A stretch of 64,000 bases of DNA from Candidatus Zambryskiibacteriota bacterium. GTDB taxonomy: Bacteria; Patescibacteriota; Minisyncoccia; Phycocordibacterales; WO2-35-19. Under the pieces are notes generated by a model, which was given only the letters and a program-made list of their open reading frames with translations, was not told the DNA's origin and did no database searches. The stretch's first letter is position 1; every line of letters starts with the position of its first letter. Shown here piece after piece: positions 20,156 through 27,523 of this stretch. The stretch covers positions 2,401 to 66,400 of the forward strand of contig JASNZL010000007.1 in NCBI GenBank assembly GCA_048499675.1. The letters run 5' to 3'. A program made the translations under genes and the position numbers.

Positions 20156-20582
20156 ACAAAAGCGGAAAATTTCCGCATTCAAAGAATTAATTGTATTGTA
20201 GTCTTATAAGACAGGATAAAAAGTGGCTAATCCCGCAAAGCGGGATGCCTAAAATACTTTAGGCTTCTGAATTTCCTAACAGGATCGGAAAATTAGTACG
20301 CCTCGGCTCAACACATTACTATGCTTACACCTAGCGCCTATCAACGTGATCATCTCTCACGATCCTTAACGATTCCTAATCTTGGGGAGGGCTTCCCTCT
20401 TAGATGCTTTCAGAGGTTATCCTTTCCCGACTTAGCTACCCTGCGCTGCATTTGGCAACACAGCAGGTACACCAGAGGTCAGTTCACTCCGGTCCTCTCG
20501 TACTAGGAGCAAATCCCCTCAAGAATCAACGCCTGCAGTAGATAGGAGACCAACCTGTCTCACGCTTGTTACCACACATTAC

Positions 20583-21554
20583 TGTGTGCAATGGACTATA
20601 GCTTTTGCAAGTTTAAAGCTTGAAAGGCGCAAGTTTGAAAGTTTGGAAATTCCTAACTTTTTAACTTGTTAACTTTTTACTTTATAACTCACTTGTTGAC
20701 ATTTAGTCTCTACGGGTGTTTGTAAATTGTGTGGAAGGTCTCATTAAAAATGAGACGCGAAGAACATGGGGAGGGCCCTCCTTATAACCCTCCACACAAT
20801 TCACAAACTTCCCTCGGTATTCTCCTTTTTGCTTTTTACTCTAAGCTCTTAGCTTCAAGCTCTAAGCTCTTCAGGAATCTACCGATATAAGTCAACTTAT
20901 CCGTAATTTTTAATTTTGAATTTTCAATTTTAAATTTATTACGGCCGCCGTGATTTGATTGCTCTGCCCCGTGATTTGCGTAGCAAATTTTACGGGGATT
21001 CTACTATACTTTAATTACAAACTCTTGAGAATTTATAATTTTCCAAACGAAAAAATTTATAACAGTTCCGACAATTTTGTCGGGATTCCGACTTGTAAGT
21101 CGGAATTTAAATTACCTCTGAGGATTCAGATTGTACAAAGGATAAGCACGAAATTCTAAATCCGAAACTCGAAACAAATTCAAAATTTTAAAATTCAAAA
21201 ATTTTAAACGTTTCGGATTTCGATATTCGGATTTCGGATTTTCATCTGTACGGTCTGACGTGTCTACTCCACTATTACTAGTGGTACTGACTATACCTTT
21301 TCTCAAATTTTCCACTTTGAGAACTGACGTGTTAGCAAGCCAATTGGCTCGCTCTGCCGACATTTGTCGACAAGTCGATACGGGGATTACAATTTTTCAA
21401 AATTAGTATTGGAAATCACAAATTGCAATCTTCCCACGATATTATCCATTACTTAAATTATAACATCTAAGCATTCGGACTACACCGTTATGAGTCAGTT
21501 TACTATTCTTTTTATTTTATTCTCGATGTGAATTGGCTGGGCTCAAGAATCCTT
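20583..21554 (-). mobile_element. ORF-less intron-like insertion in the 23S (between GCTGGGT and AACAAGCGTGAGACAG; E. coli ~2593 region)
   Basis: The exon sequence is interrupted by ~970 nt. The insert contains an internal AT-rich repeat with hairpin flanks (21150-21250) and no credible ORF. Confidence 0.5.
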
Positions 21555-21638
21555 ACCCAGCTCGCGTATCTTTTTAAATGGCGAACAGCCATACCCTTGG
21601 GACCTTCTCCAGCCCCGGGATAAGATGAGCCGACATCG

Positions 21639-22467
21639 CTGTCGTATTGCCCCAATTACTTGAGGGGTCGGACTATATCTTCACCCTTATTTTATATAAA
21701 ATAAGGGGTTCGGCGTATTAGCATGAAGTCTAGCTTCACACTCCAACCACTTAAGGTTAAGTCTCTACGGGGTCATAACCCAATTTATATTTCATGGACG
21801 GAATAATATTATTTTCTATAATTCCAAATAATTTCGAAATACTAGATGTCTTAAATCTAATTCTGTAATACTCTTTATCTTTATTTAGAGTCCCCTCTAA
21901 ACCAAATTCTTTTAGAGACCGCAATAATTTCTCTTGGTCACTTTTTGAAAATTGTTGAGTATTCAGATACACATTATTTTTTCCACATCTACTTCCGTCA
22001 TCCATAAACCATACTGCCAATATTATTGGATCTAATTTTAGATCAGGAATACATTTTTTCTTATTCCTATAAAACAAATCCATCATTTTGGTAAATTCAG
22101 GATGTTGTTTGGTAAAGAATCTATATGCAATCCGCGCACCATTTCCTTTTCGAGATTTTGGTCCACTTCTTGATAAATTTTTTAAGATTGAGAATTTCCA
22201 TTCAACATACTCTTTTTGAGTTATTGAATGATTAACTTCCAAAAATGCATTTTTTCTTCCTTTTACTCGACGAATATATCCGTCTCCTAAAAGAGTTCCG
22301 ATAATAAATGACTTCTGTAATTGAGTTAGACTTCCCTCGGTATTGTCCATATTACTAATTATATCATTTGATATAACGCCTGTTTATGGAGTCCACCGAT
22401 ATAAGCCAAATTTTTTTATATGAGATTACTCTCATAGGCACCCCGATGTGTTGTAACAACAAGTTAA
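21639..22467 (-). mobile_element. Group I-like intron in 23S domain V (after …GGCACC; E. coli ~2449 site) encoding a LAGLIDADG homing endonuclease
   Basis: The exon resumes at CGATGTCGGCTCATC. The insert contains a 594-nt ORF. Confidence 0.65.
21757..22350 (-). CDS. LAGLIDADG homing endonuclease (two-motif type)
   Basis: LLGDGYI and WFMDDGS motifs; located inside the 23S intron. Confidence 0.8.
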   Translation of the reverse strand: MDNTEGSLTQLQKSFIIGTLLGDGYIRRVKGRKNAFLEVNHSITQKEYVEWKFSILKNLSRSGPKSRKGNGARIAYRFFTKQHPEFTKMMDLFYRNKKKCIPDLKLDPIILAVWFMDDGSRCGKNNVYLNTQQFSKSDQEKLLRSLKEFGLEGTLNKDKEYYRIRFKTSSISKLFGIIENNIIPSMKYKLGYDPVET

Positions 22468-23017
22468 GGTGCCGAACTCCGCCGTCGCTCTGGACGCTTA
22501 GGCGGAACCAGCCTGTTATCCCCGGAGTAGCTTTTGTCCGATAATCTTTTGCCGCGTCTAACGCGAACAATCGGTTCACTTAGCTCTGCTTTCGCATCTG
22601 CTCCTCATGTACGAGTTGCAGTTAAGCCAGCTTGTGCCTATACACTATCGCCATGGTTTCCATTCACGGCTAGCTGACCTTAATAGGCTCCTCCGTTACT
22701 CTTTGGGAGGATAGCGCCCCACTAAAACTGCCCACCAGACACTGTTTCTTTACGTTTTTGCCGTAGAGATTAGAAAATATATCAATACAGAGTGGTATTT
22801 CACTGACGACTCCATGCTCCCCAAAAGGAACACTTCAAAGTCTCCCACCTATGCTACGCAGTAAAAACATATCCTCAATGCCAAGTTGCAGTAAAGCTTC
22901 CGGGGTCTTTTCGTCTAACTGCAGGTAACCGGCATCTTCACCGGTATTGTATTTTCACCGAGCGAGTCCCCGAGACAGTTCCCCAGTCGTTACACCATTC
23001 GTGCGCGTCTGAACTTC

Positions 23018-25250: not shown

Positions 25251-25940
25251 ACCCTCAGTTTCGGTACATAGCTTAGCCCCGATTATCTTCGGCGCAGAAT
25301 CTCTGAATGAGTGAGCTGTTACGCTTTCTTTAAAGGGTGGCTGCTTCTAAGCCAACCTCCTCATTGTCGGAGAAATTTCACCACCTTAAGTGCACTTAGC
25401 TATGATTTAGGGACCTTAAATTGAGATCATGGGCTGTTTCCCTTTTGACGAACGGAGCTTAGCCCCCGCCGTCTAACTGCCACGCTTTCACCCACACACT
25501 AAGTTTTCGATAGTTTTCAACGCGCTTTGCGCAATCAAAAACTTAGTGTGCGGGTTAACTATTGGTATTCGGAGTTTGATAGGTCTAGCGAGATTTCTCC
25601 CTGTCCAGACCTTCCAGTGCTCTACCCCCAATAGGAACGCGTGACGCGAACCCAAAAGCTCTTTCGGAGAGAACCAGCTATTACCAGGTTCGATTAGCTT
25701 TTCACTCCTTACCACAGGTCATCCGAAGGAATCGCACGACCAACCGGTTCGGGCCTCCATCTCGCTTTCGCGAGACTTCACCCTGCCCATGGCAAGCTCA
25801 CCTGGCTTCGGGTCTAATGTATACGACATAAAATTTCGCGCTATTCACGCTCGCTTTCACTATGCCTAACGCGGGTCGACCGCTTCGGCTGCCACATACA
25901 TTAACTCGTTGGCTCATTCTTCAATAGGCACGCCATGACC

Positions 25941-26111
25941 GTCACACCTCGCTACACTCGGTGACGGAATTTTCAATTTAAAATTTAAAATTTAAAAATA
26001 ATTTTCAATATCCCAATTCTCAATTAAGAAAATGGAAATTTAATCATTATTTAGAAATTAGAAATTAAAAATTAGAAATTCCGTTGCAACGAATGCACTG
26101 AGGTGCAACGG
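25941..26111 (-). repeat. AT-rich IVS in the 23S, family member
   Basis: Flanked by GTCACACCTCGCTACACTCGGTGAC and CCGTTGCAACGAATGCACTGAGGTGCAACGG. Confidence 0.6.
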
Positions 26112-26646
26112 CTCTGACTCCTTGTAAGCATATGGTTTCAGGTCTATTTCACCGCCCTCACCGGGCTACTTTTCACCTTTCCCTCACGGTACTAGTTCAC
26201 TATCGGTCTAGAAATATATTTAGCCTTACCGGTTAGTTCCGGCAGATTCCCCCGAGCTATTCGTGTCTCGAGGTACTCAAGAACAACAGCAAAAAAGATT
26301 ATTTGTTTTCGACTACGGGGCTATTACCCTCTGGGGCGCTTCTTTCCAGAAGCTTCTTCTAACAAATAATTTTGTAACTTTTCTCGTATAAATACGACGC
26401 TATCGTCTTACAACCCCCGCACACTCACTTTGTCATCGTTGCATTGTGTTTTTATAAAATTTCATTGCACATCCGATTAGCTACCGAATCTTAAATTTCG
26501 TTTACTATCAAAGATGCAACAAAACACAATGACAAAGTGAGTGTGCGGGTTTGGGCTTCTCCGCTTTCGCTCGCCGCTACTCACGGAATACTTTTTAGTT
26601 TCTTTTCCTCCTGGTACTGAAATGTTTTACTTCCCAGGGTAAGCTC

Positions 26647-26805
26647 CGTGCCTCACTACCGCTCGTCACAAAATTTTCAATTTTTAATTTTGTAATTTTC
26701 ATTGAATGTTCCAATTTTAGAATTTTCAAATTGAGACATTGAAAATTTATTGGAAACTGAAAATTGATACTTGAAAATTAGTGCTGAACGAAAGTGAAGC
26801 ACGGT
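26647..26805 (-). repeat. AT-rich IVS in the 23S 5' domain, family member
   Basis: Flanked by CCGTGCCTCACTACCGCTCGTCAC and GTGCTGAACGAAAGTGAAGCACGG. Confidence 0.55.
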
Positions 26806-27523
26806 CCTCGCAAAGCGAGGGGGTTTCCCCATTCGGAAATTTCCGGATCAAAGGTTGCTAGGCACCTCCCCGAAACTTATCGCAGCCACGCCACGTCCTT
26901 CATCGCTATTTCTAGCCAAGGCATCCACCATATGCTCTTAAATTTCCTATTAGGAAATTCAAAAACCACTTGTCCGATCATTTTAATTTAAAATGATTTA
27001 GGACTTAATTATCCTGTCTTACAAGACTACAATCATCCTGCAAGACCTTTGTCTCCATATGCCGAGCTTTTTTCTCCAGCATACAGAAACTACAATATCC
27101 TGATACAAAAAATATATCAGGAAGTCCACTTCCAACAAACAAAGACCCCTTCGACTCGCTACGCTCGCTCAGGGTAAACCCTCAGCAAAAAGAAGCTCAT
27201 CAAAAAGCGATGTTGTAGTGGAATGTACCCAGTAGTAGATTTTGGCATTGAGCAAGCTCACACATACGCAAGCGTATGTTATGCCAAAATTCACTACTGG
27301 GTTTATTTGTCAAAATACAATCGTTCCGAATTTTGTCTTCTCTACCCTGTTCTTAATTTTAGCAAGCTAAAATTAAGAACAGGATTTTGAATCATTATCT
27401 TACTCAAAAAAGAACAAAAAAATCCACTTCTCTCGAAGCGGGCTCAAACCAAGCCAAAGGGTTTTTTCTACCCTCTTTTTCGCTTCGTAGTTAAAAATCT
27501 CAATAACATAATTTGTGCTATCT

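Follow-up and report, generated by a model that had tools for sequence, protein, structure and literature searches.

The window analysed here, a 64,000-nucleotide stretch of DNA, contains a 23S rRNA gene that spans 6.7 kb with an exon share of approximately 3.0 kb, which raises the question of what the intervening sequences are and how they came to accumulate in a gene that is single copy in the genome. The answer we consider probable is that two selfish layers are superimposed on it: five group I introns, and a propagating hairpin cassette that RNase III would excise from the transcript. On its sequence, the organism is an ultra-small, Candidatus Zambryskibacteria-like CPR/Parcubacteria bacterium. 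The window also encodes the bacterial proteins FtsK, IleRS, RecA, SecDF and L10/L12. An organelle origin was rejected, as the genes are bacterial and the window is syntenic with a CPR contig, the Zambryskibacteria contig L126. The locus is arranged as follows.

20275..26953, minus strand: 23S rRNA gene, bacterial-type (Rfam RF02541, 1616 bits)
20155-20082: tRNA-like gene, 3' of the 23S
20001-19895: 5S, after the 23S and tRNA-like genes
27009..27033, minus strand: leader half of a 25-bp leader-trailer stem around the 23S, partner at 20195-20219, read from sequence
27154..27166, minus strand: solitary motif resembling loop B of the cassette, GAGCGTAGCGAGT, in the 23S leader

The leader-trailer stem has the classical RNase III processing-stem arrangement and points to conventional processing of this 23S by an RNase III-type route. 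The gene had been described from its letters alone as highly interrupted, and both the Rfam match and a blastn comparison with E. coli 23S, in which E. coli positions 12-2884 are covered in 12 blocks, bear this out. The first layer comprises insertions after E. coli U1917, U1951, U2500, U2584 and U2593.

23403..24150, minus strand: putative group I intron, 748 nt, after U1917 (exon alignment)
23465..24007, minus strand: single-motif LAGLIDADG homing endonuclease ORF, 180 aa, in the L1917 intron (PF00961, 6e-20)
23017..23368, minus strand: ORF-less group I intron, 352 nt, after U1951
21639..22466, minus strand: group I intron, 828 nt, after U2500 (exon alignment)
21757..22350, minus strand: two-motif LAGLIDADG_2 homing endonuclease ORF, 197 aa, in the L2500 intron (PF03161, 1e-41)
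21259..21554, minus strand: putative ORF-less group I intron, 296 nt, after U2584
21250..21258, minus strand: 9-nt exon TCAGACCGT, equivalent to E. coli 2585-2593
20565..21249, minus strand: ORF-less group I intron, 685 nt, after U2593
21147-21238 and 20901-20942: AT-rich hairpin inserts inside the L2593 intron

The sequence-only reading counted four such inserts, the fourth being 983 nt long. This one resolves into the L2584 and L2593 introns around the 9-nt exon, because L126 has the contiguous exon GGGTTCAGACCGT: the L2584 intron is not found there, L126 likewise has an intron at the L2593 site, and the 9-nt exon is identical to its counterpart in that genome (GGGTTCAGACCGT, intron, CGTGAGACAGG). 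Two of the sites first proposed, ~1917 and ~2593, stand, whereas exon alignment moves ~1931 to 1951 and ~2449 to 2500. The L1951 site is fixed by the flanking helix, where U1948 and A1958 form a compensatory pair, and the exon after the L2593 intron restarts at C2594. The L2500 intron is common to the window and L126.

Group I identity is supported for three introns by covariance-model matches to Rfam Intron_gpI, all under the gathering score of 50: L1951 (47.9 bits, E 8e-11), L2500 (36.9 bits, E 1e-6) and L2593 (36.2 bits, E 2e-7). The matches of L1917 (20.9 bits, E 0.01) and L2584 (15.2 bits) are weak, and for these two the assignment rests on homology and hallmark motifs. For instance, the L2584 intron is 73% identical to that at L1951, core blocks included, and the L1917 intron contains the hallmark GAAGAUAUAGUCC, with a U ending the 5' exon and a G ending the intron. 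P1 helices can be drawn for L1917 (AACUAU/GUAGUU, with the splice site at a U.G pair), L2500 (GGCACCU/GGGUGCC) and L2584 (GCUGGGU/GCCCAGC), but no convincing P1 could be drawn for L2593.

Both predicted LAGLIDADG genes, one-motif and two-motif, are confirmed by their Pfam matches. The 180 aa ORF matches halves of I-SmaMI and I-OnuI-type enzymes, as well as 3e54, a homodimeric rRNA-intron enzyme. The 197 aa ORF contains the motifs IIGTLLGDGY and AVWFMDDGS, and its nearest solved structures are 6x1j and I-SceI. It has 2249 homologues, of which all those with a named source are labelled CPR or unclassified bacterium; named endonuclease homologues carry the labels Zambryskibacteria, Sungbacteria or Patescibacteria. 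A search for credible ORFs in the other inserts found none, in agreement with the original description of those then placed at 23018-23373 and 20583-21554, and the L1951 intron has no ORF of at least 40 aa. An intron-rich 23S is usual in CPR, such that this part of the observation is already known; the main text of one survey describes 23S introns of the same kind that are removed from CPR transcripts (PMC11270868). The five introns in domains IV and V are presumably spliced out likewise, with ligation of the exons.

The second layer consists of at least four cassette copies, the AT-rich insertions, which take the place of surface-helix tips and lie where they were originally placed (refined coordinates below), and perhaps of three further hairpins. 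Those at E. coli ~278 and ~925 had been missed by the sequence-only reading.

26646..26805, minus strand: cassette H10, replacing the H10 tip (E. coli ~150-176); the most diverged of the four
25939..26110, minus strand: cassette H25, at helix H25
25074..25250, minus strand: cassette H45, with 'type 2' termini
24370..24535, minus strand: cassette H63 (MFE -59.3 kcal/mol, z -8.5)
24200..24262, minus strand: possible shortened copy at the H68 tip
26416..26549, minus strand: 134-nt hairpin at E. coli ~278 (fold -65 kcal/mol)
25491..25554, minus strand: 64-nt hairpin at E. coli ~925

The four cassettes are homologous end to end, with a mean column identity of 76% and nhmmer E values of 1e-40 to 1e-49, and the motif GAGCGTAGCGAGG occurs four times against 0.18 expected. 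The two kinds of terminus first noted are not unrelated end motifs but the two strands of one basal stem. All three further hairpins are possible degenerate copies. The proposed mini copy at H68 has short similarity only (nhmmer E 0.28); a full-length family member is present at the same helix in another genome, L151. The ~278 hairpin is possibly an old, degenerate member of the family: its 5' arm, CCGCACACTCACTTTGT, is similar to that of the family, and the same site holds a diverged family copy in L126 and many metagenome copies. The first 25 nt of the ~925 hairpin are 84% shared with it.

Each cassette has the order host stem, GC hairpin A, AT-rich imperfect palindrome, GC hairpin B, host stem. 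Hairpin A is formed by CCGYRCC and GGYRCGG around the 11-nt loop UCAYUGYRUUY, and hairpin B by CCRCCC and GGUGYGG around the 11-nt loop GAGCGUAGCGA, while AAAAUUG-type heptamers make up the long interior palindrome. As the two arms are mutually complementary, the RNA can fold either as a rod of ~75 bp or as a four-way junction. Paired cells amount to 87.7% in the rod and 88.7% in the four-way model, against ~40% when partners are slid, and covariation in the form of double-sided changes is present under both. The sense RNA is more stable than the antisense by 10.2 kcal/mol on average; it is the stabler strand for 38 of the 42 full elements and for 40 of the 42 basal modules.

Such a structure suggests that in the precursor rRNA the rod would be a substrate for RNase III, and that the AT-rich part would be removed without ligation, as in classical intervening sequences (IVSs), leaving a fragmented 23S. 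Once the rod is cut, hairpins A and B might serve as caps that protect the new 3' and 5' ends from PNPase and RNase J, and pairing between the GC-rich arms could hold the rRNA fragments together; the genes rnc, rnj and pnp are kept in CPR (PMC12641178). A structural role would account equally well for the conserved GC module and for the greater stability of the sense strand; the mature ribosome would then keep the cassettes uncut, as expansion segments that project from surface helices in the form of long rods. Insertion only at helix tips tolerant of length variation fits this alternative, as does the precedent of fungal mitochondrial double-hairpin elements and yeast GC clusters, which are reportedly not removed from rRNA (PMC2800124). 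We regard retention as unlikely, though a serious contender, since perfect dsRNA rods of this length are expected to be cut by RNase III in hosts that keep rnc, CPR rRNA insertions are reported to be removed from transcripts (main text of PMC11270868, citing Brown et al.), and the cassettes are missing or exchanged in close relatives, which makes them dispensable for ribosome function.

The architecture also evokes a terminator-promoter unit, in which hairpin A followed by a U-tract would end one transcript and an AT-rich promoter, with hairpin B at the 5' end of the RNA, would start the next, so that the rRNA pieces are transcribed separately. AAUUUUCAAUUUU indeed comes right after hairpin A, and solitary halves, comprising the AT-rich part plus hairpin B, lie in the same orientation upstream of a tRNA, a 16S and a protein gene. 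However, when consensus sites were scanned for, promoter-like ones were not in excess (8 against 5.7 +/- 2.3) and terminator-like ones only weakly so (7 against 3.0 +/- 1.8), with none of the latter at hairpin A, and the palindromic design accounts for such features without function; this explanation is very improbable.

The distribution of the cassette was surveyed by scanning metagenomes with a 21-position terminus pattern taken from the 3' arm. There were 78 matches, approximately 58 of which agree with the cassette in both AT-rich interior and termini; these related copies lie on contigs of ~40 metagenome assemblies. The extreme conservation of the 3' arm is in part ascertainment, as the search pattern was derived from it. 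Copies occupy roughly ten helix tips in 23S (E. coli ~150-176, ~230, ~278, H25, H45, H63, H68 and ~2135-2220) and 16S rRNA (~440-480), and are also found in a 16S leader, in a 16S-tRNA spacer, just ahead of a tRNA and within the loop of a group I intron. Every copy with readable context is oriented in the sense of the host RNA. Among the hosts are a Nealsonbacteria MAG and one Staskawiczbacteria-like genome, and termini are ~90% identical where the host 23S is only about 68-72% identical to that of the window. There is also presence/absence polymorphism between close relatives: L126 is without all four window cassettes, having 42 nt at H10, 16 nt at H25, 25 nt at H45 and 10 nt at H63, while L125, 96% identical, has an unrelated 86-nt hairpin at H63.

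The suggestion that the insertions are copies of one element, rather than independent helix expansions, is therefore strongly supported by sequence comparison: near-identical termini recur at other rRNA sites and in distantly related Parcubacteria, and copies from one genome share genome-specific variants. Within genomes, likeness reaches 88% for arms and 80% for interiors, as compared with 78% and 63% between genomes (p ~7e-4, with 8 within-genome pairs only). Such variants, seen for example in L187, L167 and L161, could instead reflect concerted evolution, with gene conversion or palindrome template switching homogenising helix extensions in the absence of any transposition. The H25 and H45 cassettes have a near-identical ~46-nt interior block in common despite their different terminus subtypes, and the insertions take the place of the helix tip instead of just interrupting it, as this process might produce. 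Conversion is nevertheless unable to make a copy at an empty site, the occupied sites vary by lineage and extend to 16S, spacers and an intron loop, and the identity of termini far exceeds that of the host 23S; concerted evolution without transposition is fairly unlikely, though it too is a serious contender. On the reading we favour, the cassette is a propagating element of Parcubacteria that has distantly related hosts and spreads within genomes between 16S and 23S helix tips, spacers and intron loops.

Alternatively, the cassette might be a REP/BIME-like or MITE-like DNA element, moved in trans by a transposase and found in rRNA only because insertions are tolerated there. The end hairpins are inverted about an AT-rich linker and there is a GTAG in the loop, strand-specific single-strand transposition could explain the orientation, rRNA genes usually being co-oriented with replication, and the window itself holds an example of a candidate gene, with homologues in L126 and L191.

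37130-37816: RAYT-type Y1 transposase gene, flanked by REP doublets (PF01797, 1e-10; NF047646, 49 bits)

The REPs of this gene, CCAAGGGTAGCCCTTGG, are unrelated to the cassette arms, as are those of the RAYTs in L126 and L191, which are other GC palindromes, and L126 has a RAYT without cassettes. Neither target-site duplications nor a conserved target sequence were seen at cassettes, no cognate transposase was identified for them, and all clear copies in the window fall in the 23S, even though the intergenic target is far larger. We consider mobilization of this type improbable.

Among known systems, the introns resemble those at L1917 and L1951 in Coxiella, the chloroplast L2593 intron with I-CreI, and CPR introns (PMC4990558; main text of PMC11270868), with which they share insertion sites in domains IV and V, a U at position -1, a G as the last intron nucleotide, the core motif AUAUAGUC and endonuclease ORFs in peripheral loops. 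They differ in that five lie within one bacterial gene, L2584 and L2593 being separated by 9 nt only; in that sites 2500 and 2584 are absent from the main text of the CPR survey (PMC11270868); and in that one ORF encodes a compact, two-motif I-SceI-like enzyme, where CPR enzymes are reportedly mostly single-domain.

The cassettes share with REP/BIME-RAYT systems and MITEs the form of dispersed imperfect palindromes, with two inverted hairpins, a linker and GTAG (PMC3733652), but they lack target-site duplications, are not extragenic, are uniformly oriented relative to transcription and differ in sequence from the REPs of the window's own RAYT. Mitochondrial hairpin elements and GC clusters are similarly small, ORF-less, apparently mobile palindromes of intergenic and variable rRNA regions, some folding as double or triple hairpins (PMC2800124). 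These are organellar, are far shorter, with 8-40 bp stems, are mostly intergenic and are reportedly retained in RNA (PMC2800124), whereas the cassette is bacterial, ~170 nt long, overwhelmingly located in rRNA operons and strand-specific in its RNA stability.

Bacterial rRNA IVSs, known from Salmonella, Leptospira, Coxiella, Proteus and others, are excised by RNase III without ligation; like the cassettes, they are stem-loops in place of variable 23S helix tips, sporadic in close relatives, in hosts with RNase III, and they are thought to be horizontally acquired (PMC4990558; main text of PMC11270868). The classical sites are helices 9, 25 and 45, while the window cassettes are at H10, H25, H45 and H63. 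Unlike these IVSs, one cassette family, with a conserved four-segment GC module, occupies many 23S and 16S helices as well as spacers and the loop of an intron, several times over in a single gene, and, unlike S23p-type IVS ORFs, it has no ORF. Classical H25 and H45 IVSs of the same species are not known to be mutually homologous. In the literature open to search, no earlier description of the ~170-nt hairpin cassette was found; the main text of Tsurumaki et al. 2024 (PMC11270868) mentions neither hairpins, palindromes, a shared family, structure, orientation nor cross-site occurrence, and defines its short insertions by exclusion only. Nevertheless, the cassettes are almost certainly the 'uncharacterized short insertion sequences' of CPR rRNA reported there, which are < 200 bp in length, occupy the tips of helices, among them the classical IVS sites 23IS2 and 23IS4, and have no ORF or intron features.

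The four clear AT-rich insertions of the window 23S rRNA gene (26953..20275, minus strand), hairpin cassettes of ~170 nt found at helices H10, H25, H45 and H63, align end to end with a mean column identity of 76% (nhmmer E 1e-40 to 1e-49), upholding the suggestion of a sequence-only reading that they represent a single element; the H25 and H45 copies also have in common a near-identical interior block of ~46 nt. Each folds into one long hairpin (MFE -59 to -73 kcal/mol; the H63 copy, -59.3 kcal/mol, has z = -8.5), and the two different termini previously ascribed to every insertion are the strands of one basal stem. 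At the same four helix tips, the syntenic Zambryskibacteria contig L126 has just 10-42 nt and none of the four cassettes, hence these elements replace the loops of H10, H25, H45 and H63. Comparison of these occupied and empty sites reveals the exchange of a variable helix tip for a long stable stem, as is characteristic of intervening sequences (IVSs). Also characteristic of IVSs is a patchy presence among close relatives: all four are missing from L126, and contig L125, with 23S exons 96% identical to those of the window, shares the H45 copy and carries at H63 a hairpin of 86 nt that is unrelated, meaning cassette turnover is fast; from the alignment of H63 copies, the comparison between the window and L125 is the one used here.

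Hairpins at the H68 tip and at E. coli positions ~278 and ~925 may, on weak evidence, be truncated or decayed copies; the first of these had been proposed as a fifth, miniature copy, and is kept here as a possible degenerate one. No family in Rfam 15, including the self-cleaving ribozymes, matched the cassettes in an E-value scan of 19500-27500, which returned for them sub-threshold microRNA-like hairpin matches only. Intergenic AT-rich palindromes of the AATTTTCAATTTT/AAAATTGAAAATT type, similar to the interiors of the cassettes (nhmmer E 1e-6 to 8e-11) and free of GC-rich arms, are present at 30062-30176, 30663-30800, 12515-12597 and 9155-9294, for example in the spacer between the L10 and L12 genes.

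Scanning both strands of metagenome contigs with a pattern for the 3' arm, a search biased towards canonical 3' arms, identified 78 loci. Approximately 58 consist of an AT-rich interior of heptamer repeats followed by AATTCC[AG]CCCGAGCGTAGCGAGGTG[TC]GG, and the others resemble chance matches in coding DNA. The 57 unique cassette copies, in which the arms form inverted repeats, occupy about a dozen kinds of site, determined by mapping their flanks onto the E. coli rRNAs together with Rfam annotation.

Sites occupied by the cassette family
23S rRNA: E. coli ~150-176, ~230, ~278, H25, H45, H63, H68 and ~2135-2220
16S rRNA: E. coli ~440-480
Outside the rRNA bodies: 16S leader; 16S-tRNA spacer; 4 nt upstream of a tRNA
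Group I intron: a peripheral loop that elsewhere holds an endonuclease ORF
Intergenic DNA: rare solitary 3' halves (contig L131)

Several contigs each carry two to four copies. The hosts differ widely, with 23S exons between 98% and 68-72% identical to those of the window, and include a Candidatus Nealsonbacteria MAG (PBP2 protein 100% identical) and a Staskawiczbacteria-like genome. Nevertheless, ~60 nt of the cassette termini are ~90% identical across hosts. When a collection of genomes was scanned with the short pattern AATTCCN{2,10}GAGYGTAGCG, 120 chance matches in unrelated taxa and no real cassettes were returned. The cassette is a conserved, propagating hairpin almost entirely confined to rRNA operons. 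In contig L141, a full cassette is found in the intron loop equivalent to the ORF-bearing loop of L2500, one of the window introns.

When 41 distinct arm pairs are aligned, the cassette arms resolve into four GC-rich segments with two loops of 11 nt, in the order 5'a CCGYRCC, loop A UCAYUGYRUUY, 5'b GGYRCGG, AT-rich palindrome, 3'a CCRCCC, loop B GAGCGUAGCGA and 3'b GGUGYGG. These can be modelled either as a continuous rod (5'a:3'b, loop A:loop B and 5'b:3'a), with 87.7% of cells paired and a covariation score of 0.306, or as a four-way junction in which hairpins A and B form locally within the 5' and 3' arms, with 88.7% paired and a score of 0.319; a control in which partners were slid gave ~40% paired for both. 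On these models, the two structures are mutually exclusive and about equally supported. Double-sided changes are found for the local hairpins (columns 12-33, UA in 21 and CG in 13; columns 51-75, GC in 17 and AU in 16) as well as for the pairing between the loops (columns 16-70 and 23-63), and there is one invariant A.C mismatch; as the sequences are related and were chosen on one arm, these counts are indicative rather than proof.

Every copy with a readable context has the orientation of the surrounding rRNA, tRNA or gene. Transitions in the arms generate G.U pairs in the sense RNA and A.C mismatches in the antisense, and the sense strand folds better by 10.2 kcal/mol on average across 42 elements, being favoured in 38 of the 42 full elements and 40 of the 42 basal modules. 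Strand-specific transposition of a single-stranded intermediate could also produce a uniform orientation, so orientation alone does not decide between selection on the transcript and the mode of insertion.

Private variants are shared by copies at separate sites of a contig: three copies in L187 are of 'type 2', three in L167 have a UCACUCUGUU loop and two in L161 have GGCAAGG. Identity within contigs exceeds that between them, both in the arms (88% vs 78%) and in the interiors (80% vs 63%; Mann-Whitney p ~7e-4, from eight within-contig pairs), which indicates intragenomic copying or conversion. The numerous dispersed copies with conserved inverted termini are a property shared with MITE and REP/BIME families. 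Neither a target site duplication nor a conserved target sequence was found; the cassette flanks are the complementary strands of the host helix, not direct repeats, and the bases 5' of the cassette vary, such that the helix tip is replaced and not just interrupted. Similarly, no cognate transposase gene with cassette-like ends was found, the RAYT-like genes of the window, L126 and contig L191 being flanked by unrelated palindromes.

The RAYT-like gene of the window (37130-37816, minus strand) encodes a Y1 (IS200-type) transposase (PF01797, 1e-10; NF047646, 49 bits, below cutoff) with HUH and catalytic Tyr motifs. Doublets of the ACACACCAAGGGTAGCCCTTGGTGTGT palindrome lie on both sides of it (37043-37112 and 37843-37912), with a third 33 kb away at 3909-3978; the arrangement resembles a REPtron, here in a CPR genome. 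The GC palindromes flanking the homologues in L126 and L191 differ from those of the window. A link between the cassette and this RAYT/REP system is not supported, the REP sequences being different and L126 carrying a RAYT gene but no cassettes, and a consensus scan gave no support to the cassette being a terminator-promoter unit.

By analogy with classical IVSs, which are cut by RNase III (PMC4990558), the ~75-bp rod would be cleaved by this enzyme in the precursor rRNA. The genes rnc, rnj and pnp are kept in CPR (PMC12641178), and the removal of CPR rRNA insertions from transcripts has been reported (PMC11270868). The main rival explanation is that cassettes are retained in the rRNA as expansion segments, as mitochondrial hairpin elements are reported to be (PMC2800124). 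Were they excised, hairpin A could, after loss of the AT-rich rod, cap the 3' end so created and hairpin B the corresponding 5' end, an end-capping step suggested by the conservation of the local hairpins, and pairing of the GC arms could then keep the 23S pieces together; excision of all four clear copies would leave the 23S in at least five pieces. We tentatively propose, with rather less than even confidence, that the cassette is an unrecognised class of selfish, ORF-less ~170-nt element specialised for the structured-RNA genes of Parcubacteria (16S and 23S helix tips, rRNA spacers and group I intron loops), tolerated through its RNase III-cleavable AT-rich rod and the GC hairpins that would cap and clamp rRNA ends, and that it would account for most 'uncharacterized short insertions' of CPR.

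The window introns and their endonucleases add new members to known kinds and form the ordinary part of this gene, similar intron-type content having already been published for CPR (PMC11270868). With E. coli 23S (L001:1779-4682) as the exon ruler, blastn identified twelve collinear exon blocks, at the breaks between which introns were placed by hand alignment and named by E. coli position.

Introns and mini-exon of the window 23S rRNA gene, with scores against the group I covariance model RF00028 (Rfam; gathering score 50 bits)
24150..23403, minus strand: L1917 intron, after U1917, by hand alignment to E. coli 23S; 20.9 bits, weak E-value, below gathering score
23368..23017, minus strand: L1951 intron, after U1951, by hand alignment to E. 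coli 23S; 47.9 bits, E 8e-11, below gathering score
22466..21639, minus strand: L2500 intron, after U2500, by hand alignment to E. coli 23S; 36.9 bits, E 1e-6, below gathering score
21554..21259, minus strand: L2584 intron, after U2584, start by hand alignment, split by the L126 exon; 15.2 bits, weak E-value, below gathering score
21258-21250, minus strand: 9-nt exon TCAGACCGT, same sequence in the L126 exon
21249..20565, minus strand: L2593 intron, split off by comparison with the L126 exon; 36.2 bits, E 2e-7, below gathering score

Two insertions formerly put at ~1931 and ~2449 are moved by this alignment to U1951 and U2500, the register of the former being confirmed by a compensatory U1948-A1958 pair. 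The final 983-nt insert, formerly read as one intron, resembled two tandem cores; the L126 exon at this position reads GGGTTCAGACCGT, intron, CGTGAGACAGG, which, with the exact occurrence of TCAGACCGT at 21258-21250, separates it into L2584 and L2593 with a 9-nt exon between them. An alternative mini-exon, TAGACACGT, was ruled out because the exon of L126 gives TCAGACCGT. The corrected map, including this exon, is relevant to annotating the mature rRNA.

All five introns follow a 5' exon with a terminal U, contain the (A)UAUAGUC core motif and have G as their last base, directly before conserved exon (...AAAUG, ...GACAUG, ...CGACAG, ...GACACG and ...AACAAG), and a U.G-containing P1 can be written for L1917, L1951, L2500 and L2584 but not for L2593. 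RF00028 E-values range from 8e-11 to 0.4, with all scores under the 50-bit gathering score; the core blocks of L2584 and L1951 are 73% identical, and the exons joined in silico at the five sites give the contiguous sequence of L126 and E. coli. As the sequence-only reading had it, two inserts encode one-motif and two-motif LAGLIDADG proteins: a single-motif LAGLIDADG_1 in L1917 (PF00961, 72.5 bits; IAGFVDGEGSF) and a two-motif I-SceI-like LAGLIDADG_2 in L2500 (PF03161, 143 bits; IIGTLLGDGY and AVWFMDDGS). Both score above the Pfam thresholds, possess the acidic motif residues and have homologues of solved structure, and are predicted homing endonucleases. No credible ORF was found in L1951, L2584 or L2593, the last of which has long AT-rich hairpins in peripheral regions (21147-21238 and 20901-20942, minus strand).

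Intron content varies even between 96%-identical 23S genes, L125 having an additional 713-nt insert near E. coli ~2260 (L125 2401-3114). L126 lacks L1917, L1951 and L2584 and has introns L1931, L2500, L2593 and one more downstream of L2593, at window ~20501, which encodes a LAGLIDADG_1 ORF. The two that the window does not have, L1931 and the one downstream of L2593, are those at L126 8861-9323 and 11211-12021, and L1931 has a 3' end without an obvious terminal G.

Rfam identified one bacterial-type LSU rRNA, one 5S rRNA and one tRNA in the window, each encoded by the minus strand. The 64 kb around the 23S-tRNA-5S cluster contain no 16S rRNA gene, hence there is no linkage between the rRNA genes. 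The 23S is enclosed by a leader-trailer stem of 25 bp, of the kind usual for RNase III. The remainder comprises densely packed bacterial genes at ~34% G+C, including those for FtsK, IleRS, MetRS, RecA, SSB, SecDF, FtsW and ribosomal proteins L10, L12 and S6; homologues of the intron-encoded endonuclease with a named source are labelled Candidatus Zambryskibacteria, Sungbacteria or the 'Patescibacteria group', and gene order around the 23S is the same in L126 (GCA_026394775.1). Together these identify a CPR/Parcubacteria genome with unlinked rRNA genes. An organellar origin such as a chloroplast, suggested by AT-rich DNA with LSU introns at classical algal sites, is ruled out by the dense bacterial genes and CPR-named homologues.

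The tRNA-like gene between 23S and 5S (20082-20155, minus strand; Rfam 48.6 bits) is the only one found by ARAGORN, Rfam adding a partial tRNA at the window end (63956-64000). For the tRNA-like gene, ARAGORN gives the anticodon AUA (Tyr), whose wobble base is A; that at the same place in L125 (5618-5693) is AAU (Ile), and in L126 this position is without a tRNA. The window gene may represent either an unusual tRNA or a tRNA-like processing element in decay. Elsewhere, the isoleucyl-tRNA synthetase (1154 aa; 56417-59881, minus strand) contains a histidine-phosphatase domain (PF00300, 3e-29, residues 499-663) inside its catalytic domain, and a 46-50% G+C island at 9000-11100, with long ORFs on both strands and neither Pfam nor Rfam matches, may be foreign DNA in this ~34% G+C genome.

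CPR rRNA genes are notable for their insertions, of which homing endonucleases explain the intron-type ones but not the short, ORF-less ones. The results show that a large share of the latter constitute one conserved, transcription-oriented family spreading within genomes. The consensus and its two testable structures provide a concrete, searchable model, through which possible CPR rRNA fragmentation, the nuclease recognising the cassette, the movement of a non-coding palindrome between helix tips of different RNA genes, and a possible bias of 16S- and 23S-based surveys and assemblies of CPR become testable. The literature searched contained no description of such a hairpin cassette family. 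Their counterparts in the CPR survey are the 'uncharacterized short ISs', and in its main text a term search found no mention of hairpins or palindromes and no description of the family (PMC11270868). Relative to classical IVSs, what is new in the cassette is that one family occupies many helices of both rRNAs, that it is built as a four-segment module and that it is common to different lineages.
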